DNA of 64,000 nucleotides, taken from the IMG/VR virus record IMGVR_UViG_3300022699_000502, positions 1 to 64,000 of that record, one strand, 5' to 3'. Positions 1 to 62,644 of the stretch are shown in pieces. The notes under the pieces are model-generated. The model ran no database searches and had not been told where the DNA came from. It was given only the letters and a program-made list of their open reading frames with translations. The first letter of the stretch is position 1. Every line of letters starts with the position of its first letter. The translations under genes were made by a program, and so were the position numbers. Source of the stretch: a virus (Duplodnaviria; Heunggongvirae; Uroviricota; Caudoviricetes).

Positions 1-1101
1 TTATCTTCCATCATTCAATAAATATTTCCTATATTTTTTCGCTATTTCATTCCAGATACCTAATTTTCTGATCTTCTTTGCAAAATCATCCGTTCTTTGT
101 TTTATCATTCTAAGTAACAATGTTCCGAATTCTGGCTGCATTCTGTTTGCTACTGTTGCTGCTACCTTCAACGATTGCTGTGTGTCTTTACCCAAATGGT
201 ATTCTGATATACCAGATGATACTGCATAACACAAGTCTGCTCTTGTCGGTAATTCTGCATCTTCTGGATTCTTTATTATGTTGTCTAAGTCTACTTGTTC
301 TTGTAGTTTTAAGAATGATACGAATTCTGATGCCCATCCACTTCCACAAGATGATGCTGCTAACTTCTTTATAAGTCGACTGTTTTCTGTGTCAATACCC
401 TTTATGTCCTGTGATACCATTGCTACCGATCTTGGTGTTGGAAATGCCTTCGTTTTATCATCTGGATTAAATTTGAACAACATTTCCTTCCTGTCATTTA
501 TGAAGGTTACTACTCTTGTATCGATGTCATGATTTACTGCCCAATTTGTCCATTTTTGTACTGACGGTGGATTTAGTTTCATATGTGAAAATCTGTTAAG
601 AAGTGGCTGTGGCATCTCAAACGTATTTGCTCTATCTTCGGCTCTGTTTCCTGCTGCTACCACACTGAATCCTTCAGGAAGCCTGTATTGTCCTAACCTT
701 CTATCCAATATAACTTGGTACGCTGCTGCCTGAACAACCGGTGGTGCTAAATTAAGTTCATCGAAAAAGATGACTCCTGATCCTTCAGTTGGAAACCAAT
801 CCGGCTTCGACCAATTTGTGCTTTCACCTTCCATCCTTGGTATACCTTTTATGTCAGCAGGATCCATCTGTGCTAATCTCTGGTCTATCACCCTGAACTT
901 ATCTTTGTCCTCAAACCTTTCAGATACTTCCATGCCCTTATTCTTCGCTATTTCATCAGAAGCTTGCCTTACAGCGTCACTTTTACCAATACCAGGTGCT
1001 CCCCATACAAACATAGGGACACCGGTTTCGTACTTTCGTATCACCATTTGCTTCATTTCGTCGTGGTCTACTTCGACCATTTTTCCTATTTTTTCATCCA
1101 T
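1..1101 (-). CDS. MoxR-like AAA+ ATPase
   Basis: 366 aa; Walker A GAPGIGKS, Walker B FFDELN, downstream AAGNRAEDRAN sensor region typical of MoxR/RavA AAA+; stop TAA at 1-3. Confidence 0.8.
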   Translation of the reverse strand: MDEKIGKMVEVDHDEMKQMVIRKYETGVPMFVWGAPGIGKSDAVRQASDEIAKNKGMEVSERFEDKDKFRVIDQRLAQMDPADIKGIPRMEGESTNWSKPDWFPTEGSGVIFFDELNLAPPVVQAAAYQVILDRRLGQYRLPEGFSVVAAGNRAEDRANTFEMPQPLLNRFSHMKLNPPSVQKWTNWAVNHDIDTRVVTFINDRKEMLFKFNPDDKTKAFPTPRSVAMVSQDIKGIDTENSRLIKKLAASSCGSGWASEFVSFLKLQEQVDLDNIIKNPEDAELPTRADLCYAVSSGISEYHLGKDTQQSLKVAATVANRMQPEFGTLLLRMIKQRTDDFAKKIRKLGIWNEIAKKYRKYLLNDGR

Positions 1102-1110
1102 TTTTTACAC

Positions 1111-1707
1111 CTACAAAACTCTAGCTACTATTTCATTCTCCCATTCTGGGGGAGTTAAACTTAAACTAACTTGTTCACCTATTTTATTTTTATCTAACGT
1201 AAATATAATATTATGATATGCATCCCAATAAACTTTTTTATTCCATCTTAAATCAATATCTTCAGTCACCTTAAATAATCTAGGTTCATTCTTCTTATTA
1301 TAATTATCATCCCAATAATAGATTTGTATTGCAACATATTGATCGTTCTTTTTAATTATCGGACATTTTCTATCTGTTCTTCTATGGTAACCACCATCAT
1401 CATCATAGAATTGTGTTGTGAATTTTTGTTGTTTTGCTTCGTTCACTATATCTTTTTTTGCCCACCACATAACGACTGCATTACTACCATCACTATTTTC
1501 ATGCACTTTATATGGTGCCATAAATGGTTTCCCGCCTAACTCTTGTACCTTCTCATAAAATGTCGATGAAAAAGGTTCATATCCCTTATTCTTTAATTCC
1601 TCTCTTTTCTTCCTTATTTCACACCTTATGCTGTTCTTATGTCTAGGATAACCATTCTTATGTATTATCCTACCACAATTAGGGCATTTAATATGGTTCC
1701 CTTTCAT
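1111..1707 (-). CDS. C2H2-like zinc-finger protein, paralog family member 1 of 3
   Basis: N-term KCPNCGRIIHKNGYPRHKNSIRC (CxxC-x9-HxH-x5-C); paralogous to 17421..18017 and 18090..18653; AAGAGG ribosome-binding site 8-13 nt upstream. Confidence 0.6.
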   Translation of the reverse strand: MKGNHIKCPNCGRIIHKNGYPRHKNSIRCEIRKKREELKNKGYEPFSSTFYEKVQELGGKPFMAPYKVHENSDGSNAVVMWWAKKDIVNEAKQQKFTTQFYDDDGGYHRRTDRKCPIIKKNDQYVAIQIYYWDDNYNKKNEPRLFKVTEDIDLRWNKKVYWDAYHNIIFTLDKNKIGEQVSLSLTPPEWENEIVARVL

Positions 1708-1732
1708 AATTTTACCTCTTATATATTATAAA

Positions 1733-1779
1733 CTTGTTCATCCTATATAAATATTATGGGAATGGATATGTATGGTTAG
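1733..1779 (-). promoter_or_regulatory. conserved viral promoter element copy 1 (TATA box plus CCATTCCCA upstream element)
   Basis: plus-strand cttgttcatcctatataaatattatgggaatggatatgtatgg; on the minus strand CCATTCCCATAATATTTATATAGG lies ~40 nt upstream of the ATG at 1707. Confidence 0.6.
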
Positions 1780-2523
1780 TTAATATTAGTTGATTCGTTT
1801 CTTGATGCTGTTTCATCCTCGATTATTACAATCCTACATACCTTATAAAAGTTCTATCACAAGTCCTTCCACCACCACTCACCATCCACAGGCTTAACTC
1901 TGTATGTTTTACATATTTCACCATCTTTGATAATTAACATACGAAATTCATCATTCCATGATACGATCATATGATGCACCATCTACCAAGTACCATTTTT
2001 TGGTTATCCACATAATCACATAGCATATCCTTACCTACTGCGGGTACAACATATACATTATCATGTTCCCTAATAATATTTAATGTTATATTTATATGGT
2101 GGGGTTCAAACTTCATCAAATCTCACTCCAAAATGCGTACCATATTGCATGTTGATATATGATATTGTGAAAACATATCCATATATAATCCTGATGGATT
2201 TTTCATCTACTACTATGTATGCTCTTTCATCCATCAATACATATTCAATTTTTACAGTATACATGTCAAATCGTTAAATGCCAATAACATTGTCCGTTTT
2301 TAAACCTTTGTATTTCATCATAGCTTATAATTTCTAATTCACCATCAATTATTGCGATTGTCTTACTAATATTCAATATTTTCCAACTTCTAATTATTAT
2401 CATAATGATATACCACAATTTTCATCATCAGATAATTCATTTCGGACGAATTGGTGTGCATAACTTATACCAAATATAACCTTTAATCCATATTCACAAT
2501 ACACTACACAAAATAAAAATGGC

Positions 2524-2715
2524 CTATCTCTTCTGAATGTACGCATCATAATCCTCCATTTCATTCATCAATAAATTGTCCCAACACACATCATCATAAA
2601 AAGTATTTTTAACGTAGTTAGATATACCACCTGGTAATTGATAAATCTTATTGCCTGTTATTACTATAGCATAATCTATTTCAAACATACGTGTAAAATT
2701 ATATATTACTTTCAT
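2524..2715 (-). CDS. hypothetical protein (63 aa)
   Basis: ORF on coding (minus) strand of polycistronic block; no motif recognised. Confidence 0.3.
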   Translation of the reverse strand: MKVIYNFTRMFEIDYAIVITGNKIYQLPGGISNYVKNTFYDDVCWDNLLMNEMEDYDAYIQKR

Positions 2716-2735
2716 AAATAAATAAAGGAAAGGGT

Positions 2736-3125
2736 TTATGGGGTTTCGTCTGTTGTTTCAACGATCCAGATGTCGTAAGTTTCATCATGTTCTAACTTAC
2801 ATTTACTATCCTCTTCACCTAACAAATCCCGGACTCTTGTAACACTTACAGTTTTGCTTTCAGTAAATTTTATTCCTGATTCATCAATTTTAAGTGCTAC
2901 CATATCTTGATCGTCGTTCCTTAATATTTTGACATGGTCCTCGCCTGGTTCTAATCCCATCCAAGCTTGAGCTCTTTGTGGAATATATAACGTACAACTG
3001 TCTTCACCAACCCTATATGCCACTTCATTCTTCTTATAGGATTGATATCCTCTTCCACCTCTGCTCGTTATCAACCATCCATCTTCAGCCATCTGTCGCT
3101 TCTTCTCTTTCTTCATGTTATCCAC
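2736..3125 (-). CDS. hypothetical protein (129 aa)
   Basis: coding-strand ORF; basic N-term, acidic C-term; no motif recognised. Confidence 0.45.
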   Translation of the reverse strand: MDNMKKEKKRQMAEDGWLITSRGGRGYQSYKKNEVAYRVGEDSCTLYIPQRAQAWMGLEPGEDHVKILRNDDQDMVALKIDESGIKFTESKTVSVTRVRDLLGEEDSKCKLEHDETYDIWIVETTDETP

Positions 3126-3313
3126 CTATTATATATAAGACCTTCATATCTTTGCCTTTGAACTTTATTTTGTTCGACTAAATCCAATACAATACTATGT
3201 ACTGTCGTCTTGTTTTCGTCTATTGCTTCAGCGATCTCAGATGCTGTCCATCCATTATCATCGTTCTCTTTCAAAAACGTCTTTACTTTGTCTTTTACAC
3301 TCATCATTTCCAC
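3113..3313 (-). CDS. small winged-helix DNA-binding protein
   Basis: 66 aa; TASEIAEAIDENKTTVHSIVLDLVEQNKV resembles MarR-like HTH plus wing. Confidence 0.45.
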   Translation of the reverse strand: MEMMSVKDKVKTFLKENDDNGWTASEIAEAIDENKTTVHSIVLDLVEQNKVQRQRYEGLIYNRWIT

Positions 3314-3558
3314 CTAATATAATTCATGTTATAATCTCCTTCTTGTTTTTGGTCAACTTCGTTTTTATCAACCAATGACCTAATTGCTTGATTTATTGAT
3401 TGTCTGCGAAATCCAGTTACTTCTTCTATTTGCTTCGATGATATCCAATCACCATCGTTAAGTTTGACTATTTCCAATATTTTACCCTGTACGTCCCTTG
3501 ATTTCACACTCTCACCTTCTCTTTCCATTTTCTCAATCGATACTGGCATATAAATCAC
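3304..3558 (-). CDS. winged-helix DNA-binding protein
   Basis: 84 aa; N-term MPVSIEKMEREGE is shared with 33493..33864 (MSPVSIEKMEEEGT); the central helices look wHTH-like. Confidence 0.5.
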   Translation of the reverse strand: MIYMPVSIEKMEREGESVKSRDVQGKILEIVKLNDGDWISSKQIEEVTGFRRQSINQAIRSLVDKNEVDQKQEGDYNMNYIRWK

Positions 3559-5908: not shown

Positions 5909-6205
5909 TCACATTGCTAATATTGACTCACACACATATACCGTATTCCCAATGTTTACGGGGATAGCACCTACTATCTCCCTCAACATATCATAATCGC
6001 ATTTCCTAACATCAACAATCTTATTTTCGTAAGTATTATCGATGTCTCGTTCAATAACTGCGCTGGGAATGCGATCATTAAATGTCATAATAGAGAATAT
6101 ATATTCTCTAATTCTCATCAAATACCGTCCCGACCCAATTTTCCTATATTTTCTCATTAATATACCACAGGTCTTGTATTTATAATGTCGGATGGTTCCA
6201 ACCAA
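5909..6205 (-). CDS. hypothetical protein (98 aa)
   Basis: coding-strand ORF. Confidence 0.4.
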   Translation of the reverse strand: MVGTIRHYKYKTCGILMRKYRKIGSGRYLMRIREYIFSIMTFNDRIPSAVIERDIDNTYENKIVDVRKCDYDMLREIVGAIPVNIGNTVYVCESILAM

Positions 6206-7821
6206 CCTCTTCTAGCTATACCTACTCCAAATCTTCTAACAAAATCCATCATAGTTGTTCCGTGTGCATCGCTCCCGATCTCATACATAACATCGGTATC
6301 CATTATCATCTCATCGTTCAAGTCTAAGCGTTGAGGTAAACTATTTATTTCAAATATAATTCCATAATCTTCATGGAATGTATTTATATGTTTTGGTTGT
6401 AATACCTCATTTCCTTCTCTTTCACCTATAACTCTACCAGTTGGATGAGCCAACACATCTATAGAGTTTGTGCTGAAAGCATTATGTAACCTCTCAACTA
6501 TATTTTCATCTGTTATGCTTTGATGGACTGCGCCTATAACATAATCATAGTAGTCCAACCAATCCTCTTTATATATGTCACCGTCTTTCATTATATCAAC
6601 TTCAACACCCTTCAATATCTTTATGTCATGTTTATCGTTCAAATCATCTATGAGCATATTCCTATTTATTATGTCGTTCTCGTCCATATCTCCTAACGGT
6701 CTTTGATGGTCTGCTATACCAACATATTCATAATCTAACTCTATTGCTTTACTCACAATCCCTGGTATATCTACGTTTCCATCTGAATAATCGCTATGTA
6801 TATGAATATCACCCATTATATCTGATTCTTTAACCAAATCTGGTAAGTTATTGTTGAGTGCTGCTTCATGTTCACCTCTATCATCGCGTAATTCAGGTGG
6901 TATATATTCGAATCCCAATTTTTCGTATATTTCCCGTTCCTTTTCACCTGCAATCTTTTCATCGGTTTCCATGTCTGCCATCCTATATTCGTTCAGTGTC
7001 CAACCATACTGTTGTGCTCTCTTCCTCACCTTTATGTTGTGTTCTTTGCTTCCTGTAAAATATTGGATTGCTGCACCCCAACACTCAGGCTCTATGACCC
7101 TCACATCTATTTGTAGACCGTTATCCAACATAACGGAAGTTTTGGTGTCACCGCTTACCAATACCTTCATGACATCCTCGTAATTTTTAGTGGCTTCCAT
7201 AATCGTATCGCTATCGCCTGTTGTCAATATATCTATGTCACCGACTGTTTCCTTGCGCCTTCGTAGACTGCCCACAATTTCCAATTTATTCGTCTTTTCA
7301 GATAAAAATGAGGCCAATGAATGTGCATTATTCCACGCATCATCTAACCTATATCTGTCTGAAAATTTACGTAAATATTCAATTCCTTCTAATATATTCT
7401 GTTCAGTCTTTTTACCAAACCCGCTTAAATTCCTGATTGTACCTGATTGTGCGACTTCTTCTAAATCATCTAACGACTCAACACCTAACTCGTCATATAA
7501 TTTTTTGACGGCTTTTTTACCAATACCTTGTACCTTCTTCACTTCTTTAAGCCCATCCGGTATCTCTTCCTTCAAATTTTCTAAATATTCGCAAGTACCG
7601 CTTTCAATTATTTGTTCTATTTTTGAAGCAGTACTATCACCAACACCTGGGATCTCTTTCAAATTACCTTTCTCATACAGTTCCCTTATGTCCCAATCAG
7701 TGCTACTTATATTCCTAGCTGCATTTCTATACGCCCTTATCTTATATTGGTTTTTATCCAATATCTCCATCAATTCAACTATCTCATAAAATTTATCCGC
7801 TATTTCTTTCTTATTCATCAT
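6157..7821 (-). CDS. family X DNA polymerase (Pol beta-like core with C-terminal PHP domain)
   Basis: 554 aa; helix-hairpin-helix motifs IPGVGDSTASKI and GIGKKAVKKL; nucleotidyltransferase GSLRRRKETVGDIDIL; PHP motifs HIHSDYSDG, ADHQ, LAHP, GSDAHG. Confidence 0.85.
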   Translation of the reverse strand: MMNKKEIADKFYEIVELMEILDKNQYKIRAYRNAARNISSTDWDIRELYEKGNLKEIPGVGDSTASKIEQIIESGTCEYLENLKEEIPDGLKEVKKVQGIGKKAVKKLYDELGVESLDDLEEVAQSGTIRNLSGFGKKTEQNILEGIEYLRKFSDRYRLDDAWNNAHSLASFLSEKTNKLEIVGSLRRRKETVGDIDILTTGDSDTIMEATKNYEDVMKVLVSGDTKTSVMLDNGLQIDVRVIEPECWGAAIQYFTGSKEHNIKVRKRAQQYGWTLNEYRMADMETDEKIAGEKEREIYEKLGFEYIPPELRDDRGEHEAALNNNLPDLVKESDIMGDIHIHSDYSDGNVDIPGIVSKAIELDYEYVGIADHQRPLGDMDENDIINRNMLIDDLNDKHDIKILKGVEVDIMKDGDIYKEDWLDYYDYVIGAVHQSITDENIVERLHNAFSTNSIDVLAHPTGRVIGEREGNEVLQPKHINTFHEDYGIIFEINSLPQRLDLNDEMIMDTDVMYEIGSDAHGTTMMDFVRRFGVGIARRGWLEPSDIINTRPVVY

Positions 7822-11339: not shown

Positions 11340-11839
11340 ATGAAACGACCATTAACATCATATCCATTTTCATCACACCACTCCAAGAAATCACCTGTAC
11401 CGCCACCTCGTGTCTCAATCGCCGAATTAAATTCACTACATATTTTTGCGAAATCTTCATAGTCCTCTGTGTTCCATTCATTTATTTGGAACCCGACGCT
11501 GTCGTCATTTGGTAAGAAAAACCACACTCCGGTGTTCTCAACACCAACTACCGTTGTTATGAAGGCAGGTGGTACACTTATTGCCGTGTCTTTTACTTCC
11601 AATCCGTCTTTACTAAAATCGATATCTTCAATATCGATGATTTGTTTAATAGGAATATGTGACAACTTATCGACATTCATCCCAATATCTTCGAGTTTAT
11701 CGCATTTTGGCCAATACTCGACCTTTAGTTTAGCATCCAATAAGTCTAATGCTCTTTTTAATACTGCTTTTTTCGATTCCGCATCTGTATATGGGAGCCT
11801 CGTAACTATTTCACTACAATTCGGTTGATCAACCATCAT
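11336..11839 (-). CDS. hypothetical protein (167 aa), translationally coupled to the radical-SAM gene
   Basis: start overlaps the radical-SAM gene's stop by 11 nt; acidic; function not recognised. Confidence 0.5.
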   Translation of the reverse strand: MMVDQPNCSEIVTRLPYTDAESKKAVLKRALDLLDAKLKVEYWPKCDKLEDIGMNVDKLSHIPIKQIIDIEDIDFSKDGLEVKDTAISVPPAFITTVVGVENTGVWFFLPNDDSVGFQINEWNTEDYEDFAKICSEFNSAIETRGGGTGDFLEWCDENGYDVNGRFI

Positions 11840-12629
11840 ATTTCCTCCTTTTTATATATGGACAACTAAATCTTTCATCTAATTGAACGTCTTTAAGTTT
11901 AGTGATGTCGGATGGTTCATCGAGATGTACTAATATGGAGTCGGCAAAACTGCACCCTCTTACATCACCCGTTTGGTCTATACACACAGTTGATGTGCCA
12001 TAATGACATGGTGATCCCCAATGATTTCCCATATTATCTAATAGTTTTGAACTGCATTCATCTACATATACGTTTTCTAATTTCTCGAAGTATCCGAATT
12101 CCCAATACTTGTCCAAAATATCCACTGTTGGTTCGTTTTTCATCGATAATAAATATACTCTATCTGCCCGATTAGATATACTATCAACGATGTTTACTAT
12201 GTTATCAAATACGCCGTCCGTCATCAATATGTTCGCACCTATACGTGAATCGCTAAACATCCGTGCTTGCTTGATGGTTTCTAAATACTCATCCATATTC
12301 CATTTGTAGTCATCGTATGATATACTGATCATGTCGATGTTAGCACTGCATTCTATCAGTTCATCTAAATACTTACCGTTCGTCGTCAAATTCATTTGTA
12401 CTCCATTCCGCTTCCCTTTTGCTGCCATCTTATGCAATAAATCACCTTTGTTTTTTAGTACTTCACCGCCGCCCACGGCTATCTGTTTCGTGTATGGCGC
12501 CACTTCTTCTACTAACTGCATCCAAAACTCATCCGGCCGACCCTCTTTGTTTTCTGCATAACAAAACGGGCAATCTAAATTGCAATCATTTGTTATATGC
12601 ATACTTACTACTTCAAAATTCATTTCCAT
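11829..12629 (-). CDS. radical SAM enzyme with C-terminal auxiliary Cys cluster (SPASM/Twitch-like)
   Basis: 266 aa; CNLDCPFCY CxxxCxxC cluster; glycine-rich VGGGE SAM-binding motif; C-terminal GSPCHYGTSTVCIDQTGDVRGCSF extra cysteines. Confidence 0.75.
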   Translation of the reverse strand: MEMNFEVVSMHITNDCNLDCPFCYAENKEGRPDEFWMQLVEEVAPYTKQIAVGGGEVLKNKGDLLHKMAAKGKRNGVQMNLTTNGKYLDELIECSANIDMISISYDDYKWNMDEYLETIKQARMFSDSRIGANILMTDGVFDNIVNIVDSISNRADRVYLLSMKNEPTVDILDKYWEFGYFEKLENVYVDECSSKLLDNMGNHWGSPCHYGTSTVCIDQTGDVRGCSFADSILVHLDEPSDITKLKDVQLDERFSCPYIKRRKYDG

Positions 12630-13317: not shown

Positions 13318-13538
13318 AATAGTTCAGCCACCAACACATCTTCAACTTCTTCAGGCCATTGTAATTTCCTAAATTCTTCTTCGGCTTCCTCTTCAGTATC
13401 ATAATCGATAATCACTTTAGTTTGCTTATGTGCTTCACCATCATTTAGCTCATCCAACACGTTGATCGTAACTGTATTGTGAGAGCCGTCGGCATCTAAT
13501 ATGATTTCGTATCTACCTAATGATTTAGCACTGTACAT
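13314..13538 (-). CDS. hypothetical acidic protein (74 aa)
   Basis: coding-strand ORF. Confidence 0.4.
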   Translation of the reverse strand: MYSAKSLGRYEIILDADGSHNTVTINVLDELNDGEAHKQTKVIIDYDTEEEAEEEFRKLQWPEEVEDVLVAELL

Positions 13539-13881
13539 ACTTCATATATCTCTCCCAACAATCCGGACACCTATCCGTTAGTTCCTGAAATGCCTCATCT
13601 CTATCTATTTCGCCTAAAGTTGGGTCATAAAAGTAAGGTAACGGTGAATTATGATTATACCCTCTCCTTTCCATCTCTATCACTAACTCTTCATGCCGGC
13701 TTCTTATATTATGCACTTCAACTAAACCGTTTTCTATATACTCCTTCAGTTTTCTCTCCAAATCATCATCTGCTTTCTGTATTGTCCCGACAAACATATG
13801 GAGTTCGTTATGTTCGTCTAACAAATGTTGTCTACACATAAATCTTGGGTTTACCATCCACATTCTCATAAGCATCATCAA
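13525..13881 (-). CDS. pyrimidine-dimer DNA glycosylase-like (T4 endonuclease V family)
   Basis: 118 aa; N-term VNPRFMCRQHLLDEHNELHMFVG parallels T4 DenV [24 protein letters not shown]. Confidence 0.55.
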   Translation of the reverse strand: MMMLMRMWMVNPRFMCRQHLLDEHNELHMFVGTIQKADDDLERKLKEYIENGLVEVHNIRSRHEELVIEMERRGYNHNSPLPYFYDPTLGEIDRDEAFQELTDRCPDCWERYMKYVQC

Positions 13882-23381: not shown

Positions 23382-23553
23382 CATCTTCCTCCAAATCTGT
23401 CATTGTTACACTTTTTATGTTCCTCATGGGATAATATATTAGTCCATCATCAAAGTATATTTCTAGGTTTTGCTCCGACATATGTACGATTTCTTCTGTT
23501 GTTATCTCTTCCATATCTCCATTCATAAAATGGATTGTTACTTTTGTTTTCAT
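23374..23553 (-). CDS. hypothetical mini-protein (59 aa; hand-translated)
   Basis: MKTKVTIHFMNGDMEE...; ATG overlaps the ligase gene's stop as ATGA. Confidence 0.35.
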   Translation of the reverse strand: MKTKVTIHFMNGDMEEITTEEIVHMSEQNLEIYFDDGLIYYPMRNIKSVTMTDLEEDDG

Positions 23554-24437
23554 TTAAATGCCTCCCTATTTATAACTTGTCTTAATACTTCTTCGCACCT
23601 AGTCCCCACCATATTCCTTATTTCTTTGAAGTTTAGTTCCCAATTATTCCATATTATTTCGTCCCACTCTTCACTCCATATGTCTTTGTATACCGTATCC
23701 ATGAGTTGCGGCATTATCTCCATCTGTATGTTTCTGTTGTATTCGTCTCTTATCTTATATATGTTTTTTTCTATGCGGTGGTTAGTTACGTATTTGCTTA
23801 CGAATTTTTCGTTGTCGTCTGCTGCCCTGCCTTTTGGTTTCCCGTAAACTTTATCCCTTTTCTCAAAAAATTCTTCAGCTCGTTTTTTACTGAAGAACTG
23901 CGTACCATAACACTTTAATACCACTCCTTCTGCCTTACCATCTCTATATTCACTGTCTGGAACCTCTATGTCCTTTGGTGATACATGTCCTACAATAGTT
24001 ATTAAGGGCACCATATCAAAATTTAAGTCTTCAAATACTAACTGTTTTTTTGCATAACTTACAAATTGTTCATTTTCCTCGTCATATATGTCGAACCACA
24101 ACACATCAGGCATATTTTCCCAATCATACTCTAATGCATGCGGTACCATCTGTTCACCAAATAATGTTAAGTTATTATGTCCAAAATGTTCACATAATAT
24201 TTGTGACATCTCTTCAGGTGTTGTTTTGTTGTTAACATAATCTATTGTTTGCTGGAACTGTTCGCGATTACCGTTTAATCCAACAACGTTTCTACTCCTA
24301 AACAAAAAGCCATCGTTATTCAGTTTAACACCAACATTAGCACCATCCAACTTTTCTTCGATTATAACATCTCCAGAACCCTGTAAATTACTTATGTCTT
24401 CGCTCCCAAACTCACTTATTTTTGGATACTTCTTCAT
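23550..24437 (-). CDS. ATP-dependent polynucleotide ligase (nucleotidyltransferase superfamily; RNA-ligase-like)
   Basis: 295 aa; motif I EEKLDGANVG (KxDG); motif IV AEGVVLK (EGxVxK); small size and KLDGxN favour an Rnl2/Rnl3-like RNA ligase over a replicative DNA ligase. Confidence 0.7.
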   Translation of the reverse strand: MKKYPKISEFGSEDISNLQGSGDVIIEEKLDGANVGVKLNNDGFLFRSRNVVGLNGNREQFQQTIDYVNNKTTPEEMSQILCEHFGHNNLTLFGEQMVPHALEYDWENMPDVLWFDIYDEENEQFVSYAKKQLVFEDLNFDMVPLITIVGHVSPKDIEVPDSEYRDGKAEGVVLKCYGTQFFSKKRAEEFFEKRDKVYGKPKGRAADDNEKFVSKYVTNHRIEKNIYKIRDEYNRNIQMEIMPQLMDTVYKDIWSEEWDEIIWNNWELNFKEIRNMVGTRCEEVLRQVINREAFK

Positions 24438-26938: not shown

Positions 26939-27388
26939 TCAATTATGTATTGTTATGTAGTCATACTTTGATAAGTCCACAAAATCATCAACATTCTCTT
27001 TGTGGTCTTTCCAATCTATGTCTTCCCATCCTGGACTTTTCATCATCCTTGGCTCATTTTCTAACTTAACTATGTCGTCTCCTTCTTTCAAATATACGTA
27101 CCAACTATTAGTCAGTAAGTTAGTCATATTTTTTCTGTCATTATATACTTCTGCTTCATCTTCTATATATATTTCACCGTATGACAACCAATATGGACAA
27201 TGATGTAGAATTGTTGCTGGACCTTCTATTGTGCCAACCTGCTCAAATTTATCCCATAACTTGTTTCTACCGTTGTTTTGTACCTGTCCTTTTGTTAGAA
27301 GGTGTACGCTCTCCGCCATCTCCAGACAGAAAATAGCATCCGTATCCGGCTCTTCTACTCCATCTTCCGTTATTTTTTTAATATACAT
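26939..27388 (-). CDS. hypothetical acidic protein (149 aa)
   Basis: coding-strand ORF ending 16 nt before the tRNA. Confidence 0.45.
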   Translation of the reverse strand: MYIKKITEDGVEEPDTDAIFCLEMAESVHLLTKGQVQNNGRNKLWDKFEQVGTIEGPATILHHCPYWLSYGEIYIEDEAEVYNDRKNMTNLLTNSWYVYLKEGDDIVKLENEPRMMKSPGWEDIDWKDHKENVDDFVDLSKYDYITIHN

Positions 27389-27403
27389 AAAATTCCTCCA
27401 TGA

Positions 27404-27475
27404 TTGCGGGTGGAGGAATCGAACCTCCGACTACCGGGTTATGAGCCCGGTGCCCTACCACTAGACCAACCCGCA
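27404..27475 (-). tRNA. tRNA-Met (anticodon CAU), initiator-like
   Basis: folds by hand as a 72-nt cloverleaf; 7-bp acceptor stem (U1:A72), U8, A14, D-loop GG, anticodon stem CCGGG/CCCGG, loop CUCAUAA with U33 and A37, 5-nt variable loop, T-arm GGAGG-TTCGATT-CCTCC; three G:C pairs next to the anticodon loop; no encoded CCA. Confidence 0.85.
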
Positions 27476-27477
27476 CA

Positions 27478-27771
27478 TTATCCTATAACATTTTTTATGG
27501 TGAATTCCCATCCACCCTTTCCGTACGTCCCTTCAACACTTACTTCCATCACATCATCTAAAGGCACCACAACTATGTCCGCCGTTATACCCTCATCATA
27601 GATGTCACCTCGTCCATCATTCTTAAAGTCATCAGCAACCATTGAACCACTATTGAACGTACTCGCATCGATATGTAGTTTGTTTATTGCATCTAATCTG
27701 TTTTTTGCCTCGATTGTACCTAAAATTTCGACTCTACCAAATTTTTTGATTCCAACCATATATTCCATCAT
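27478..27771 (-). CDS. hypothetical protein (97 aa)
   Basis: coding-strand ORF between the tRNA and aRF1. Confidence 0.4.
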   Translation of the reverse strand: MMEYMVGIKKFGRVEILGTIEAKNRLDAINKLHIDASTFNSGSMVADDFKNDGRGDIYDEGITADIVVVPLDDVMEVSVEGTYGKGGWEFTIKNVIG

Positions 27772-28754
27772 TTCACCTCATACCTCAATATTAGGCCGTG
27801 TTCGAATGTATCCTTGAAGTTTTTCCCATAATCCGTTGATGTATCTATATCTATTATGTTCGTTCCATATTTTTCAGCTAACTCTTTATGTTCGTCGTTC
27901 GTAGTTAGTAGTGTGTCGCCGGCTCCCATCCGTAATACCCTCTGTACGTCCTGCCCGTACGTCGCCATATCTTGTGTTATCTTCTTTTTGAACTCCTCTA
28001 TTTTTTCTTTCTGTTTACCTTTGTGTTTCTCTTCTATTGTTTTATGTGCCTTGTCCGTTAGTTCATTTAGGCCGTTTATGTTAGTGTACTCCACTGTATA
28101 TGTGTCTTGTGCTCCTATGTCGCAGTTTTTTAGGAAGTTTGTGGGGGTTAGGCCGGTCCCTCCCACAAACACGTAGTCGTGTGAGCCTATCAAATGCTTT
28201 GCTTTCTCACATACTTTCTTGTAGTATTGTTTTGCGCGCTCCTCTATGTCTCTTTCGAACCTTTGCGCCGATTGTCCACCCTGGCTATGTTTACTTGGTA
28301 CTAATGAATTTATGTGTTCTAATTCCATCGTACTATTATTAACGTGTTCACCTATGACGGCTTCTTTCCGGTCTAACACTATAAGACCTATCGATATTTT
28401 GTCTTTGTTGAGTACATCTAGTAGGGGTTGTACATAAAATGTGTTATCACAATAATACTTGTTTGGTACCTCACCTTCCACTTCGTATACCTCACATACT
28501 TCTTGTTTATCGACATCTCCTGAGAATACTACCAAAGATGTATCTAAATTGTTTATTCCTTTTAAAACGCGAATAATACGCTTTAGAGCAGCTTTAACGT
28601 TTCCCCTCGTCTCCTTACTCTTGATGTTATCGGATTTTGCGAGCTGTTGTTGTAATTTACTCTTCATCGCATTAATGTTATGGTCTTTATTTATGTATAC
28701 ACTTATCAGTTCCGTGTTGTTACCCCTCATGTCTTTTAGGTCCTCTACATCCAT
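27768..28754 (-). CDS. class-I peptide chain release factor, aRF1/eRF1 family
   Basis: 328 aa; N-term LKDMRGNNTELISVYI (compare eRF1 LEAARGNGTSMISLII); NIKS motif; YYCDNTFYVQPL (eRF1 YxCxxxF YLCDNKFH); GGQ motif HSQGGQSAQRFER. Confidence 0.8.
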   Translation of the reverse strand: MDVEDLKDMRGNNTELISVYINKDHNINAMKSKLQQQLAKSDNIKSKETRGNVKAALKRIIRVLKGINNLDTSLVVFSGDVDKQEVCEVYEVEGEVPNKYYCDNTFYVQPLLDVLNKDKISIGLIVLDRKEAVIGEHVNNSTMELEHINSLVPSKHSQGGQSAQRFERDIEERAKQYYKKVCEKAKHLIGSHDYVFVGGTGLTPTNFLKNCDIGAQDTYTVEYTNINGLNELTDKAHKTIEEKHKGKQKEKIEEFKKKITQDMATYGQDVQRVLRMGAGDTLLTTNDEHKELAEKYGTNIIDIDTSTDYGKNFKDTFEHGLILRYEVK

Positions 28755-37363: not shown

Positions 37364-37804
37364 TTGCGTATTATTTATATTATGCGATGGACTCCAGAAG
37401 ACGAAAAAGAGTTAATGGATTGGTATGAGCTGTGTGGTAGTGATATCCCGAGTTTGTTAAATAAAGGGTATACTAAGAGTCAGATTAGGAGTAAGGCGTT
37501 CAGGATGGGATTATCAGAGAAGAATAAGTGTGGTCCTGGAAAATGTGATTTGACGGAACAGCAACTACTAGATATGTACCATGGTGAATACATGACAATC
37601 GAGCAGATTGCCGAGAAGACTGGGTGGGCCGAACAAACCATCTATAGGAAGATGCACGAGTATGAAGTGCCGTTAACCGGCAAGTTTCGGTATACAAAAT
37701 GTAGTGAGTGCGGGAAACGTATTAAGGCGGAGCGCGCTGATATATTGGATGATGATGCGGTTTTATGTGATATGTGTAAGGTTATGCGTAATTTAGGTAT
37801 CTAG
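37364..37804 (+). CDS. HTH-repeat DNA-binding protein with C-terminal zinc ribbon
   Basis: 146 aa; repeated ~40-aa HTH-like units ending RMGL / HEYEV, resembling the N-terminal repeats of the adjacent LAGLIDADG protein; CSECGKR ... CDMC. Confidence 0.5.
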   Translation: MRIIYIMRWTPEDEKELMDWYELCGSDIPSLLNKGYTKSQIRSKAFRMGLSEKNKCGPGKCDLTEQQLLDMYHGEYMTIEQIAEKTGWAEQTIYRKMHEYEVPLTGKFRYTKCSECGKRIKAERADILDDDAVLCDMCKVMRNLGI

Positions 37805-38872
37805 AGACTTTTCAAATTGTCTTTTTTTACGTTCTAAATACGTTTGTGCATCATCATATAAATATTCGTAAATATTCCTTTTATCGGTTTGTTTTCCGTA
37901 ATGTACAACGTAGTTTTCCTTTGATGGGTGTTTATATATGTCGTTCTTCGAATTTATTATAGTACCAATTATTTCGTTTACGTCTTGCATAAGTTGACGT
38001 GACCCGCATATCGTGAAACTATTACCGCTAATACTGCCGTCTGCATCAAACAATCCCCTTATGAAATGTCTGTGGTATTTTTCGGGTATATCTGGCATAT
38101 ATGTCTTATGTGACTTACACGGAACGACACCATATTTTTCTAAATCCTCAACTATCTTCTTTCGGGTTATCGATAAAGCAAATCCGTCCTTACCCGATTC
38201 GTGTATGCTGTGCGACGAACTCATTGCGTTTCTTAGTTTCAAAAGATGGTCGGTATCTTTCGCGTTCAATGATACAGTTAAACTATATCCCGTACCACCT
38301 TCTCCTGTTTTACCTATGTTTCCATCACCAACTATGAACCCCAACCAATATGCCTTTTCAGAACTATCCATCTCTTCGAAATAATCTTCGTCTACTTCTT
38401 TATATGAGTACTTTGTGTTCAGCCCATACTTCTTCAGATTCCTATAGACTGTATGCGGCGAAATATTGAGTGCATCCGCAATTTCCTGTTGTGTCATATC
38501 CTTATCATGGTACATTGTGTTTAGCATATTTTCCGTCGAATCGTAATCATTCAAGCTAGTTCTACATAATCCCATATCCTTCAAATAATTCGATATTGTT
38601 GATGTTGAAACCGAGAAAACCGAAGCAATTTTTTCTCGCGACAGTCCTTCATCAATATACATCCGTTTTAACATATCCTTATCTAATTCTTCTTGTACTC
38701 TCGTTTTGTTTTCGGACCAATCAGTTCGTTCTTCTATTAACCCAAACTTGATTATATGTTCATTGATATGCGATTTATCTACGTCTAGCAGACCCGCAAT
38801 GCGCTTGTGTGAATACTTTTTGTCTACGTACAAGTTCCGCAAAATCCGCTTCAATAACTGTTCTGCATCCAT
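37793..38872 (-). CDS. free-standing LAGLIDADG homing endonuclease with three N-terminal HTH repeats
   Basis: 359 aa; two LAGLIDADG motifs LGFIVGDGNIG and GLFDADGSIS; N-terminal repeats (each ending K-F/M/Y-GL). Confidence 0.75.
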   Translation of the reverse strand: MDAEQLLKRILRNLYVDKKYSHKRIAGLLDVDKSHINEHIIKFGLIEERTDWSENKTRVQEELDKDMLKRMYIDEGLSREKIASVFSVSTSTISNYLKDMGLCRTSLNDYDSTENMLNTMYHDKDMTQQEIADALNISPHTVYRNLKKYGLNTKYSYKEVDEDYFEEMDSSEKAYWLGFIVGDGNIGKTGEGGTGYSLTVSLNAKDTDHLLKLRNAMSSSHSIHESGKDGFALSITRKKIVEDLEKYGVVPCKSHKTYMPDIPEKYHRHFIRGLFDADGSISGNSFTICGSRQLMQDVNEIIGTIINSKNDIYKHPSKENYVVHYGKQTDKRNIYEYLYDDAQTYLERKKRQFEKSLDT

Positions 38873-42924: not shown

Positions 42925-43100
42925 TTGCGTCACTTACGCCATAGATTGGTTAGTGGTCGGCGCGTCACTTACGCCATAAAATTTGATGCGCATTTTCGCA
43001 ATTTAGAAATTTCGCCGTTTACGCATTTGCGCAGTTTACGAATTTTCGCATACACAAAATACTAGTTGCGAATTTTCGCAATCTGCGAATTTGCGCAGGG
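42925..43100. repeat. right flank repeat block of the GC-rich module
   Basis: TCACTTACG at 42930 and 42965 (variant TCACTAACG at 43241); palindromes ACGAATTTTCGCAT (43038), TGCGAATTTTCGCAA (43067), TGCGAATTTGCGCA (43085); TTTAGAAATTTCGCC. Confidence 0.5.
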
Positions 43101-43524: not shown

Positions 43525-44017
43525 ATAAAATTAGTGTTTATTTTTATAAAAATAAAATTTCAATAGGTTTATATGTAAAGTCTGCGTTAATTAAAAAAAA
43601 GAAAAAAAAAAAGAGGTCGGCTGGGCATACCTCTCAAAAAGGTTTGTAGGTTAATTACCTATGAATCTTGAGATAAAAATAAGCAAAATTGTAGGTAATA
43701 ATTTAAATCCTTATCTAATTTATTAAGTAATTTCATAATAACTTTATTTGGTCGGTATTACTGACTAAATAGAAATTAAACATTAAACTATCATACAGTT
43801 ATTAACTACCCTTAAAATAGGTTTAAACAATATTCAAGAGTAAATTAATACATACTTTTAGTATGCTTAAACATTAATCCTAATAAATTAGATAATAGGT
43901 TTTTTAGAATTTTTTTGGATAAACCAAATATAAAAAATCAATAATTCTGTATGTATGAATTTAAGTAGTATATACAGAATTAAAAAACCATTAAAATATA
44001 TATGTGAGGCGAATAAA

Positions 44018-44500
44018 ATGAAAAAAGAAGATATAGATAAATGGATAGAAGAAGCGAAAATAACAACAAACAACAAACAAAATAGTCTAAATATGAATGT
44101 AAGGGCAGATAGGTTATTATACCTATTTATCGGAGATAAAGAAAATAGGAAAATCCTTTATGGGAATGGATTACAGCAAAAAAGGATAAGAGATAGTCTG
44201 GTAAAATTAGGAATAGAAGAAGATAGTATAACCAGTCAGACCATTAGGAAACAAATGAGAAAAAACGCAGTAATAGATTATAACTGTAAAGAAACTAATG
44301 GAGATAATCCAGAAAATAAAACAAACAAACCTATATGGGCTAATAAAAGAAATTTCATTTATTACAGAGTTAATCCATATTATGTTAAGGAAAATATGGA
44401 TTTAAGGAAAGTCAGTAAAGTTGAAGTCAGTAATACAGTTAAGTCTATCATTAAATTCATTAAAAACCATCGACCAAAATTATATAATCTAAAGAAATAA
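44018..44500 (+). CDS. basic K/N-rich protein P1 of the AT-rich island (160 aa from the GAGG-linked ATG)
   Basis: GAGG 8 nt upstream of the ATG at 44018; very AT-rich codons; possible HTH near RIRDSLVKLGIEEDSITSQTIRKQMRKN. Confidence 0.5.
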   Translation: MKKEDIDKWIEEAKITTNNKQNSLNMNVRADRLLYLFIGDKENRKILYGNGLQQKRIRDSLVKLGIEEDSITSQTIRKQMRKNAVIDYNCKETNGDNPENKTNKPIWANKRNFIYYRVNPYYVKENMDLRKVSKVEVSNTVKSIIKFIKNHRPKLYNLKK

Positions 44501-44514
44501 AAACCTTTTATTTT
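44499..44514 (+). terminator. intergenic oligo-T element AAAAACCTTTTATTTT
   Basis: repeated after P1, P2 and P4; followed by TTTTTATATAAA TATA-like box. Confidence 0.35.
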
Positions 44515-44540
44515 CTTTTTTTATATAAATGGTGATAAAA

Positions 44541-44930
44541 ATGAATTTAGAAGATATGTATAAATTAAACATAAAATTCAATAATAGATATAGACTTAAG
44601 AATACAATTAAGAAAATAAAAAACAATAGTGAATACAGTAATTATGAGAAAATAAAAAGAATCAGTAGGTTAAAAAAGACCACAAAATTACATAATTGGT
44701 ATAAGTTATTTTCTTATTTTATAAAAGATAAGAAAATAATAACTGATACCGATTTAATTTTTACTGCATACAGATATATAACCAAATATACAGATATAAA
44801 AATAACCACAGTAATAAATAAATTTAATGAAATAGAATCATCATTAAAAACTAAATGGATAAAAGAAAAATCATTTTGGGTTAATATACAAAATGATGAA
44901 TTTTATCTTATCAGAAGTCTATGGAAATAA
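44541..44930 (+). CDS. basic K/N-rich protein P2 (129 aa)
   Basis: GGTGATAAAAATG start context. Confidence 0.5.
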   Translation: MNLEDMYKLNIKFNNRYRLKNTIKKIKNNSEYSNYEKIKRISRLKKTTKLHNWYKLFSYFIKDKKIITDTDLIFTAYRYITKYTDIKITTVINKFNEIESSLKTKWIKEKSFWVNIQNDEFYLIRSLWK

Positions 44931-44935
44931 AATAA

Positions 44936-44950
44936 AAACCTTTTATTTTT
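44936..44950 (+). terminator. intergenic oligo-T element AAAAACCTTTTATTTT
   Basis: second copy. Confidence 0.35.
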
Positions 44951-44994
44951 TATTTTTATATAAACTAAAAAACCTTTAATTTAGATGTGATAAA

Positions 44995-45423
44995 ATGATA
45001 TATGAATTTAATAGACCAGAAGAAATAAATTTAAAACCCTTTAAGGTTATTTTCAATAAAATAACCCTATCTGAAAATAGAAATCATTTAAAGATAAAAC
45101 TATCCTATTGGGATAATTGCCAAAGGTTAAGAGAAATAAATAAAAGGAAAAAAGAAACTGACTTATATATAAAAATACCAAAGAAATTAACTGATGATAT
45201 TAAGGTAAATATCAATAAAACAATAAACCTAAATTTAGAATTGGAATTAATCCATACAGTAATTAAAAATATAAAATATTTAATTTTACATAAAAATAGA
45301 AATTACAGTAAATATCATTATACAAAAATACAGAAAATTATAAGATTTTTAGAAGATATAGAAAATAAAATTTCCAGAAGGATAGATGTTAAACCATTAA
45401 ATGACTTATTTGGTGGTGAATAA
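44995..45423 (+). CDS. basic K/N-rich protein P3 (142 aa)
   Basis: GATGTGATAAAATG start context. Confidence 0.5.
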   Translation: MIYEFNRPEEINLKPFKVIFNKITLSENRNHLKIKLSYWDNCQRLREINKRKKETDLYIKIPKKLTDDIKVNINKTINLNLELELIHTVIKNIKYLILHKNRNYSKYHYTKIQKIIRFLEDIENKISRRIDVKPLNDLFGGE

Positions 45424-45424
45424 A

Positions 45425-45790
45425 ATGATAAAAAATACTTCTCTTATTGGATTAGGGAAAATAGTACATTTAAGAATAAACCAAATAGTAACAGATATAT
45501 CAGAAAATACAATTTATTTAGAATTTAATAAACATAATAGTGATAAAAACCATACTGATACAATAAGAATAATTGAAATAGATAAAAATAACATTAAAAC
45601 CAATAAATATAATGACCCAATTACTGAAATAACAATAAATGATGATACATTTATTAAAATAACATTTAATCAGTTATATAGTTGGATAGATACAATAATA
45701 TCATTTATTACGATAAATAATCAGATAGAGTTAAAAAGAAAATTAGAGAAAATACAGTTATTCTTAAATGAATATATAGATTATATCTAA
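45425..45790 (+). CDS. K/N/I-rich protein P4 (121 aa from the GGTGA-linked ATG)
   Basis: GGTGGTGAATAAAATG start context; abuts the P3 stop. Confidence 0.5.
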   Translation: MIKNTSLIGLGKIVHLRINQIVTDISENTIYLEFNKHNSDKNHTDTIRIIEIDKNNIKTNKYNDPITEITINDDTFIKITFNQLYSWIDTIISFITINNQIELKRKLEKIQLFLNEYIDYI

Positions 45791-45804
45791 AAACCTATTT
45801 TTTT
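45789..45804 (+). terminator. intergenic oligo-T element AAAACCTATTTTTTTT
   Basis: third copy (variant). Confidence 0.3.
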
Positions 45805-46057
45805 TATTATATTTTTTTGAGAATTTTTATTGGAATTTTTATATATAAATTAATTAATCCTTAATATCTATTATCCTATTTTCTATCTTAACATATAGGT
45901 TATAGATTTATCAAAATTAGGTTATTAGAAGTCTTATAGTGGGGTATATTACCGATTGAATTAATTGATTAAGGGTTAATAACATTTAGACTTTTTAGAT
46001 ACAATATAAAAATTATGATAATAGAAAATATAAATCTAATTTTGTGTGTTTTATCAT

Positions 46058-46222
46058 ATTTCTATTTACTCAATTCTTATAAATTAGTTAATTGTTAAAT
46101 TTTTATTTCTATAAACCTTAATCCTATAATTAACCTATATTTTATTTCTATAAACCTTAATCTTATAATAAGATATTTCTTATTTCTATTTACTTAATTC
46201 TTATATTAATTAGTTATTTCTT
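46058..46222. repeat. nested direct repeats R1-R2-R2-R1
   Basis: R1 ~36 bp TATTTCTATTTACT(C/T)AATTCTTATA..TTAGTTA at 46058 and 46180; R2 ~29 bp TTTATTTCTATAAACCTTAATC(C/T)TATAAT at 46097 and 46140. Confidence 0.5.
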
Positions 46223-62400: not shown

Positions 62401-62644
62401 AAATAGTGTTGGGGCTTTAACAACTAACACAATAACAGTTAATAATTCGATGAGTGCAGATTCGATCACAGCAAACACAACGTTGGATTGGTCTGCAGGA
62501 GAAGCATTTCCAAATATTATTGAGCAGAATAGCGAACCAAGCTTGTCCTCTGGAGCTTGGGGAGTTTGGTATGATAATGATGACGACCAAATGTGGCTTA
62601 TCATTAACCACGGAGGAGATCAAAGAAAAGTAGAGATTGCGTAA
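56435..62644 (+). CDS. giant repetitive D/H-rich fibre-like (receptor-binding) protein, 2069 aa, GTG start
   Basis: internal repeats (TDxxAITAINxDxDHGSTAQHDY x4, VKTGDDEVYxL x3, DGTSWxGAxAEAAVG x2, LSDLxDVxxxxYTDGYVLRAxGS x4); HxxxHxxGGxDEL motif at the N-terminus and twice near the C-terminus; extremely acidic. Confidence 0.8.
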   Translation: MHDKIHGVSHEYGGEDEISVDSLSGLLVDPQYTRVLDSGAYEGTSYTLDFDTGLRAQLDVDDVVVTLDAILSDLDDVSGISYDTGKVLVGDGSEFHADYLSHSALLGLTDDDHLEYLPRDGQRAMYGDLDMGSQEITNVTYVDGIDISEHDHDGDAPNVPMEGLLDINGFSKLDLGKYVDRPIPGIQDRVYTAYDSQVGFWYDDGSSWRALTTKNHQSLTGIKSDDHHSRYTDGEAITAINTDGDHGSTAQHDYYTDSDAITAINNDTDHGSTAQHNYFSGSHDDLTDVSVNDHISNITDIPNRDHNDLNNIGTSDHHVKTGDDEVYALTRYQSAQPGTPSAGMTYMDSDNDIIYVYDGTSWQGAKAEAAVGILSDLGDVTNVDYTDGYVLRADGSKYVSTTLNHDDLTNVNSDDHHSRYTNSEAVTAINDDSDHGSTAQHDYFSGSHDDLTDVSATDHIQNLNQIPTRSHDDLQNIDSSDHHVKTGDDEVYGLIHYDDSSPGDSQLGLAYVDTYDNILYVNDGTSFVGVKGASPSIFLEDIQDVSDVSYNAGYVLRADGSQYATSTLRHTDLTNVQPEQHHVAFVGLEDNQGVVVQPAPDDRVQFTDDEIVNADAVDSTVAFSIDQSKISHDSISGVSPDDHHNAFIGLEDEDGAVVDPAIDNRIQILGDDTISIVGSASVLNLSASVGNIHHDSLLGLTAHNHHYKTVDDEVYGLTRRQSNAPGSPSAGMTYMDAENDVIYVYDGTSWSGARAEAAVGQLSDLSDVQNIGYTDGYVLRASGSYYETSQLSHTDLGDIGSSAHHTRYSDEEAQDAVGPIVTGGTNIDVTYNDGVPSIVVDNTQSKYTDEEAQDAVGNIMVGTGATTVDYDDSTDTITIDSTQLNEETVQDYAWDVLDGTQTLINVTYDDQNDNVDFVVRESEINHNNLINGSQIDAHHTRYTDMEAINAVESYGALDISVTNSDMVDSYHASAFVLESGDSMSGNLKVPSLKFSDTVESDDHAGVILSSETTNDKHTYIHNYDNSLLFIDDRETVNTSPVPDINNTSDIFNDTKSQSAQWTDWDAAKPVTITIDSNNHDSSSIDYIYFDFENGRYCSDIKAEYYDGSWHTFYNTTNNDDELPFIHKSEFSEQVSGWIQLKFTFDGTLAYTDDLRIDEIGVFSPDEDEGFVMKRSGGNIYDTIDMNQNSIINASAYNGVDINTHITDADAHHWHDDHYGLIRYQSVPPGTTKFEQVYIDTDDDTLQVYDGGAWVTIAGGGTAPQNLSDLNDVTDVSYSAGYTLRANGSQYVTAQLDHSDLAGLSPDNHHTAFTPTDHDSRDHSPVASTMDLNELAAPSSQLDINYQDLDNVGVIDFDTTPSTTSHQEGRVRWNNTDKTLQADTEITDVSLQVGQEMYVRVQNNTGSTINNGDVVYINDGSSDNPTIGLAQANDKNKAHRTIGMATHDISDGSIGYVTTYGRIRGLDTSSYTLGDELWLSPDTAGGVTDTEPVGLDNRIKVGVVIRSDASDGIIFFNKTQFFNASDIKLNNAANASYTNLQQKLDHTAATGIYEGGAITDNGDGTIDISGGSAQIKTSSSWTAEVLEIDFSSATNLTPTDDDSTYYYLDYNGGSPTISSTTSRDSINFQDELYIGKVYRNGTDITIINTSQQVAGITTKGLYSTYYKDEVKRVTGLTLSETGNRYLQITAGLLFYGYTRIDISAKDTSGTDTFTYWYRDGSGGWTTTTGNTQVSNQQYDDGTGTLANIENNDYGVFWVYMGHDGKLHVQYGQNSYNKYADALNATIPDAPDLLGTFCTFIAKIIIEEDGTNFDDVLIPWMNGGVGGATVTDHGNLSGLGDDDHLQYLLHDGSRAMSGNLDMGTNNITNVGNVDGVDVSDHSTRHEDGGADELNVGGLSGELADPQTPKTHASTHYDGGTDELDAADLAGASGTSGQYLKTDGSTATWADIEAVSDHGNLTGLDDDDHTQYLLVDGTRTMSGNLNMDGNNINSVGALTTNTITVNNSMSADSITANTTLDWSAGEAFPNIIEQNSEPSLSSGAWGVWYDNDDDQMWLIINHGGDQRKVEIA

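Follow-up and report, generated by a model that had tools for sequence, protein, structure and literature searches.

The 64-kb window, that is, the whole stretch of viral DNA analysed here, contains a single tRNA gene, which ARAGORN called at positions 27404–27475 on the minus strand with a length of 72 nt and the anticodon CAT; the total across 74 kb of the viral genome is likewise one. The same interval was matched end to end by the Rfam family RF00005 (model positions 1–71) with 67.4 bits and an E value of 1.7e-12, against a gathering score of 29 for that family, and zero non-canonical pairs were flagged in the alignment. This score and E value far exceed anything expected by chance, and the gene is real. 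Its thermodynamic fold is also near the cloverleaf (z = −3.1). A sequence-only reading of this DNA had placed a canonical cloverleaf with anticodon CAU here and had made it depend on tRNA predictors calling that anticodon; ARAGORN and Rfam agree with it, the coordinates are correct, and no other anticodon was called. The strand, left unstated in that reading, is the minus strand.

Read 5' to 3' on the minus strand, the RNA comprises the acceptor strand UGCGGGU, the linker UG, the D arm (stem GUCU and GGGC around the loop AGUGGUA), a single A, the anticodon arm (stem CCGGG and CCCGG around the loop CUCAUAA), the variable region UAGUC, the T arm (stem GGAGG and CCUCC around the loop UUCGAUU), the acceptor strand ACCCGCA and a terminal A. 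All seven acceptor pairs are Watson–Crick (U1:A72, G2:C71, C3:G70, G4:C69, G5:C68, G6:C67 and U7:A66). The D stem is formed by G10:C25, U11:G24, C12:G23 and U13:G22, two of which are G·U pairs, and the base of the anticodon stem by G29:C41, G30:C40 and G31:C39, so that the three consecutive G:C pairs described previously are indeed read in the sequence. The anticodon C34-A35-U36 (27441–27443, minus strand) is placed within the loop CUCAUAA by ARAGORN (anticodon at gene position 33), by the Rfam alignment and by the sequence itself. The discriminator is A73, and the nucleotides of the tertiary interactions are all intact (U8, A14, G18–G19, G15:C48, G53:C61, U54-U55-C56 and the T-loop). No CCA is encoded 3' of the tRNA, where the next bases are UCAUGG.

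The tRNA gene sits in a dense block of minus-strand ORFs and, as had been proposed, is flanked by small genes. Upstream, a 328-aa homologue of the aRF1/eRF1 family of class-I release factors (27768–28754, minus strand; Pfam eRF1_1, eRF1_2 and eRF1_3) ends 293 nt from the tRNA, close to the 300 bp of the first estimate. Between the two, the ORF list contains a 97-aa ORF (27478–27771, minus strand) which has a 4-nt overlap between its start and the aRF1 stop and whose stop codon lies 2 nt before position 1 of the tRNA. This ORF has no match in Pfam, PHROG or PADLOC and is an orphan when searched against 1.84 billion representative proteins, and its AlphaFold2 model is poor and unreliable (pLDDT 51). 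Directly downstream of the tRNA, the list gives a 149-aa ORF (26939–27388, minus strand), with no family match in Pfam, PHROG or PADLOC, which begins 15 nt after the tRNA; the 15-nt tRNA trailer carries a GGAGG Shine–Dalgarno-like motif (27395–27399, minus strand) 6 nt before the ATG of this ORF. On the same strand, 3 kb downstream of the tRNA, lies a gene for an ATP-dependent RNA ligase with a KxDG motif (23550–24437, minus strand; Pfam RNA_ligase, E 9e-19; phrog_548 RNA ligase, E 2.7e-34), which may belong to a set of genes for tRNA repair or translation rescue; this is taken here as a lead only.

A promoter of its own is disfavoured for the tRNA: a sigma-70 promoter scan returned 18 sites versus 15.4 in shuffled sequences, with no enrichment, and the A/T-rich box upstream of the gene, judged by eye, is too near to be an archaeal TATA box serving it. 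Given that neither the scan nor the position of the box supports an own promoter, co-transcription with the neighbouring genes is preferred.

The window derives from a tailed virus, since its rightward block encodes a large terminase subunit (TerL), a portal protein and a 2,069-aa ORF of tail-length type, and the tRNA, being an intact gene between viral ORFs in a viral genome, is virus-encoded. The G+C content of the window is 36%. The matching JGI contig, Ga0248669_100020, is 137,081 bp long; position 1 of the window corresponds to its position 76,699, and as the end of the window would overrun the end of the contig, the window must stem from a second contig or from a permuted copy relative to Ga0248669_100020. 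No integrase was found among the ~50 window ORFs scanned.

The viral aRF1 retains its motifs, namely NIKS (residues 43–46), YxCxxxF (as YYCDNTF) and GGQ, with invariant columns in the alignment, and lacks the domain-3 insertion present in cellular proteins of 412–415 aa. Its best homologues are archaeal aRF1 proteins from Methanomassiliicoccales and DPANN, at 35–37% identity, so that the archaeal type ascribed earlier to this gene stands, both on the Pfam eRF1 domains and on these homologues. A tblastn search of 50,697 records from cultured phages and archaeal viruses gave no match to it, and in IMG/VR just four weak relatives were found. A short aRF1 (349 aa) was also observed on a cellular contig of 56% G+C labelled 'Halobacteria archaeon' (L124, GCA_034190545.1), in ordinary metabolic surroundings; 70% of the Ile codons of this contig are ATA despite its high G+C.

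The PolX-PHP polymerase of the virus shares 48% identity with proteins from Ca. Saliniplasma, Ca. Natronoplasma and further Thermoplasmatota. Genes for Hjc and AGOG, presumably archaeal-type protein families, lie immediately to the left of the window on the same contig. The closest relatives of the viral proteins (aRF1, 52% identity; PolX, 57%) come from sample SL_8KL_010_SED, which we take to be Kulunda soda-lake sediment. An archaeal host is indicated by the archaeal-type aRF1, the affinity of PolX to Thermoplasmatota, the presence of Hjc and AGOG and the soda-lake origin of the relatives, and with moderate confidence we place the probable host among the halo(alkali)philic Thermoplasmatota. 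A bacterial host is rejected on the same aRF1, Hjc, AGOG and PolX affinities.

Several other features of this genome were observed. DNA repair is well represented among its genes, by PolX-PHP at 6157–7821 and a pyrimidine-dimer glycosylase at 13525–13881 of the window, and by Hjc, AGOG, RNase H and an NAD-dependent DNA ligase just outside it (L201, 13318–18807). A radical-SAM protein (11829–12629, minus strand) gave weak matches to the prokaryotic viperins of PADLOC, with E about 1e-15 and in the N-terminal half only. Two genes resemble homing endonucleases, one with HTH and LAGLIDADG (37793–38872, minus strand) and one with a PHROG HNH/homing-endonuclease match (62637–63542, plus strand), the latter directly after the 2,069-aa ORF. 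Where the leftward gene block gives way to the rightward one (42992–43050 and 44001–46209), the DNA contains a stretch of 21% G+C at 44–46 kb and two tandem repeats, of 17 nt × 3.5 (42992–43050) and 38 nt × 2.9 (46099–46209); this may mark an origin of replication or a site of regulation. Stop codons in the window are TGA (56), TAA (54) and TAG (16), and GTG or TTG starts amount to ~30% of the crude window ORFs, an upper bound, as the caller takes the first ATG, GTG or TTG after a stop.

Judged by its sequence, the viral tRNA belongs to the initiator class. The G29-31:C39-41 pairs stand beside the loop CUCAUAA, and the acceptor stem follows the initiator pattern xGCGGGG/CCCCGCx with A73, having GCGGG at positions 2–6, CCCGC at 67–71 and A73, with U:A rather than G:C at 7:66. 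The acceptor pairs GCGGG/CCCGC at 2–6/67–71 are common to E. coli tRNAfMet and to the consensus of 170 archaeal initiators (PMC5393177). An archaeal-type initiator-like gene from a Bathyarchaeota MAG (L129) shares the identical 17-nt anticodon arm, CCGGGCUCAUAACCCGG, and is 82% identical to the viral tRNA overall, with mismatches mostly in the D arm. The build of an elongator, with a strong 1:72 pair, usually G:C, and without GGG/CCC, is not that of the viral tRNA, in which U1:A72 and GGG/CCC were found.

Comparison of CAU tRNAs that occur together separates the classes further. In the 26 loci examined that have at least two CAU tRNAs called by ARAGORN, the type with xGCGGG and GGG/CCC is always accompanied by CAU tRNAs of another design; in viral arrays these others begin with GGTCC, GGGCC and other sequences. 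Two loci (L028 and L185) hold three CAU tRNAs each, in three distinct classes, and L002, a fragment of a related virus, combines a U1:A72 CAU tRNA with three G:C pairs and an elongator-type CAU tRNA with G1:C72 and A31:U39.

The weak terminal pair had been counted among the initiator features in the sequence-only reading, and this claim stands in part. The pair is present, and in bacteria U1-A72 is found in 1.4% of initiators versus 0.05% of elongators (PMC5143459), which makes it a rare, initiator-specific variant (PMC5143459, PMC1635315); it is not a standard hallmark, and it breaks the archaeal A1:U72 rule. Because of its specificity to initiators in bacteria, U1:A72 argues for the initiator class, though in violation of that rule. 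The viral tRNA is not a formylatable initiator of the bacterial type, because it has U11:G24 instead of A11:U24, a pair that is conserved in 100% of bacterial tRNAfMet and required for formylation (PMC1635315). From the bacterial tRNAfMet design, in which a mismatch or rarely a weak pair at 1:72 accompanies A11:U24, it thus has the weak U1:A72 and differs at 11:24, which is U:G. Considering these features together, it is reasonably probable that the gene functions as an initiator-class tRNA-Met in an archaeal tailed virus.

Archaeal and eukaryotic initiators 'systematically' carry A1:U72, the sole named exception being the Psi1:A72 of S. pombe, and for e/aIF2 it is reportedly important which bases form this pair, beyond the pair being weak (PMC5393177). 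The viral tRNA has U1:A72 in place of this pair, and a tRNA of this kind may bind aIF2 poorly. Its D stem is also distinctive, with U11:G24 versus G11:C24 in archaeal-type tRNAs (L129, L144 and L176). Initiator-like genes with U1:A72 and a base other than A11 numbered 8 in 185,579 species genomes, 2 of them archaeal, one in Salinibaculum rarum and the other in the Bathyarchaeota MAG (L129). Because no Thermoplasmatota genome in that scan gave a match, the viral gene is probably not a copy of the host initiator at 1:72, within the bounds of a pattern that demanded consensus acceptor and anticodon arms. The Ca. Saliniplasma fragment that was examined holds tRNA-Lys and tRNA-Pro as its only tRNAs.

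On the Salinibaculum rarum chromosome (L127, 4937–5082), the U1:A72 initiator-like tRNA abuts a tRNA-Val and lies ~4 kb from RtcB-like and RNA-ligase genes. These neighbours hint at a virus-derived island in which this tRNA could lie. The region had no match to known viruses, which leaves a provirus origin of the tRNA unsupported.

In IMG/VR, U1:A72 initiator-like genes were found on at least 119 contigs, versus 49 for the A1:U72 form. Among the matches listed, most of the U1:A72 tRNAs are bacterial in type (A11:U24), many encode CCA, and the best match to the viral tRNA reaches 83% identity. When the tRNA was compared by blastn with 50,697 records of phages and archaeal viruses, full-length matches did not exceed about 79% identity. 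Exact and degenerate pattern scans of IMG/VR for relatives of the tRNA returned at most one unrelated bacterial-type tRNA, and a metagenome scan returned five tRNAs, all within tRNA arrays and none related. In the U1:A72 CAU tRNA of L002 (3093–3165), the loop is UUCAUUC (U37, C38), the second pair is G2·U71 and the T stem contains one mismatch. At L193 (6146–6222) and L194 (88–163), in large metagenomic tRNA arrays with 10 and 22 tRNAs, respectively, in the stretches examined, initiator-like tRNAs were observed that are mismatched at U1×U72 and encode their CCA; these two loci show position 1:72 to be highly variable in putative virus-borne initiators.

The tRNA and the adjacent aRF1 gene had been interpreted together as a small translation module of initiation plus termination. 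What stands of this proposal is the co-location, which is real and recurs in L002 (SL_8KL_010_SEDDRAFT_10011313), a soda-lake contig in which 15 tRNA genes (962–3377) stop 14 nt short of the start codon of aRF1. Conservation does not extend to the small ORFs. Gene order around aRF1 and the tRNAs differs between L002 and the window, and the ORFs flanking the tRNA have no similarity to those at the equivalent positions in L002; the idea of a conserved aRF1-partner gene next to the tRNA was dropped on this account. The association of tRNA and aRF1 is one of co-location only, with no mechanistic link that would couple initiation to termination. Segments resembling eRF1_2 were also observed within arrays of 13 tRNAs in a giant-virus MAG (L136) and 17 tRNAs in a 125-kb viral contig (L138), and ARAGORN called two of the L136 tRNAs with four-base anticodons.

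The strongest rival to the initiator reading is a tRNA-Ile2, in which host TiaS would convert C34 to agmatidine and IleRS would charge the tRNA, which would then read AUA and compensate for codon usage. The sequence-only reading had entered this alternative as a caveat, which proved justified and stronger than foreseen, as in 126 crude window ORFs isoleucine is encoded by ATA 852 times out of 1,452 (59%), which amounts to 4.74% of the total codon count. The tRNA is alone in 74 kb of genome, agmatidine can turn a CAU tRNA into a reader of AUA (PMC8450103), and a CAU gene is not separable from Ile2 by its anticodon alone (PMC8450103, PMC5143459). However, the candidate host lineage already uses AUA often: in the Ca. 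Saliniplasma fragment it encodes 44% of the isoleucines and makes up 3.45% of the codon total, which reduces the viral enrichment to ~1.4-fold. The structure of the tRNA also speaks against Ile2: both its acceptor and anticodon stems are initiator-type, U1-A72 is nearly absent from elongators (PMC5143459), and in viral arrays the class with xGCGGG and three G:C pairs differs from the adjoining CAU tRNAs of the GGNCC type. The relative L002, moreover, has a separate elongator-type CAU tRNA able to fill the Ile2 or Met role. On this evidence we consider an Ile2 function unlikely.

An elongator or dual-purpose tRNA-Met, which aEF1A could accept because U1:A72 is a full Watson–Crick pair and which would supply Met to AUG codons inside genes, whether or not some initiator activity were retained, also appears improbable. 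The 1:72 pair of the viral tRNA is fully Watson–Crick, and its D stem has the Y11:R24 form that is usual for elongators. Seong and RajBhandary reportedly showed in 1987 that a single base change lets E. coli tRNAfMet elongate in vitro (work cited in PMC9976931). The change was reportedly from C1 to U1, and the importance reported for the identity of A1:U72 in e/aIF2 recognition is consistent with such a role (PMC5393177). Yet a dedicated elongator would not be expected to have the three G:C pairs and the initiator acceptor stem, there is no codon synonymous with AUG to compensate for, Met usage is ordinary at 2.48% in the virus versus 2.61% in the Saliniplasma fragment, and the Psi1:A72 initiator of S. 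pombe shows that a U:A top pair is compatible with initiation (PMC5393177). A gene with no decoding role, be it a decaying copy, a decoy or sponge for a nuclease or factor, processing punctuation or an attachment-site remnant, is very unlikely, for although the tRNA lies 2 nt after a stop and 15 nt before a start, such that its excision would free an mRNA with a short leader bearing the Shine–Dalgarno motif, and although the related L002 tRNA looks partly degenerate (UUCAUUC, G2·U71 and the T-stem mismatch), the helices of the viral tRNA are fully paired, its tertiary nucleotides are intact, its Rfam score is high, the gene is complete, unlike the partial copies typical of att sites, and the ~50 window ORFs scanned include no integrase.

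Under the initiator-class reading, which we favour, the tRNA would be transcribed in the tightly packed leftward operon that it appears to share with the viral aRF1. Host RNase P and RNase Z would then excise it, the host CCA-adding enzyme would complete its 3' end, and host MetRS would charge it through the CAU anticodon and A73. Delivery to the small-subunit P site would be carried out by aIF2-GTP, with the three G:C pairs acting as they do in all initiators. The likely role would be to keep initiator tRNA available, or make more of it available, while the cell is infected, for instance if the host's own pool came under attack or were switched off. The reversed pair U1:A72 may shift the partition of the tRNA between aIF2 and aEF1A, or its recognition by host enzymes that read the acceptor end. 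A more far-reaching version, in which U1:A72 would make the viral initiator functionally distinct from the A1:U72 initiator of the host and in which it would act with aRF1 and the RNA ligase to keep the start and stop of translation running under host shutdown, is decidedly doubtful; the viral tRNA could, for instance, be unseen by a host enzyme or toxin that targets the acceptor end of the host initiator, or could have an altered partition between aIF2 and aEF1A.

Virus-encoded tRNAs are common, and codon usage explains most of them. An initiator tRNA in a virus is a different matter, since codon usage cannot account for it. An intact-looking initiator-class gene with U1:A72 in an archaeal virus represents a natural test of how strict A1:U72 is in archaeal initiation, and also of whether viruses exploit position 1:72. 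Its location beside a viral aRF1, recurring in a lineage that seemingly infects poorly known halophilic Thermoplasmatota, extends the short list of translation components in archaeal viruses. If the tRNA were an ordinary Ile2 or elongator, the finding would be routine.

Among cultured archaeal viruses, HGTV-1 has the most tRNAs. Its sole annotated tRNA-Met in the region 40,000–100,000 is not initiator-like, with a length of 86 nt and an anticodon stem of GGCAGG/CCUGUU. HGTV-1 encodes 36 tRNAs, RtcB, RNA ligases and a CCA-adding enzyme, and resembles the virus described here in being an archaeal member of Caudoviricetes with tRNA gene(s) alongside RNA-ligase or repair genes (PMC8651126). Bacterial PrfH/RFH-RtcB pairs are likewise similar in that a release-factor-family gene lies near an RNA ligase gene, as aRF1, the tRNA and the Rnl-type ligase lie within 5 kb in the window, and the RFH-RtcB pairing has been read as a means to mend RNA and rescue ribosomes once toxins have done damage (PMC6514570). 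In contrast to these pairs, the window encodes an aRF1 with the full stop-codon-reading motifs and not a bacterial RFH, its ligase is of the Rnl type and not RtcB, and the genes are not adjacent, so that the likeness is one of gene content alone.

Among cellular tRNAs, the S. pombe initiator is alike in having a U-derived base 1 paired with A72 (PMC5393177); that tRNA is eukaryotic and cellular and carries a pseudouridine, whereas the viral U1 is known from the gene alone. The bacterial tRNAfMet and phage-contig tRNAs with U1:A72 share with the viral tRNA this pair, G2:C71, C3:G70, the three G:C pairs and A73, and the viral tRNA differs from them in having U11:G24 and no CCA and in belonging to an archaeal virus. 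Its likeness to cellular archaeal tRNAiMet extends over CAU within CUCAUAA, G29-31:C39-41, the GCGGG/CCCGC pairs 2–6, A73 and the lack of formylation elements (PMC5393177). Unlike them, it has U:A instead of A:U at 1:72, U:A instead of G:C at 7:66 and a D stem of GUCU/GGGC (U11:G24) where the archaeal form is GGGR/YCCC, and its gene lies inside a protein-coding operon of a virus. The viral gene is therefore of a known kind, a virus-encoded tRNA, and what is new, as far as the gene sequence goes, is the reversed 1:72 pair in an initiator-class tRNA of an archaeal virus.
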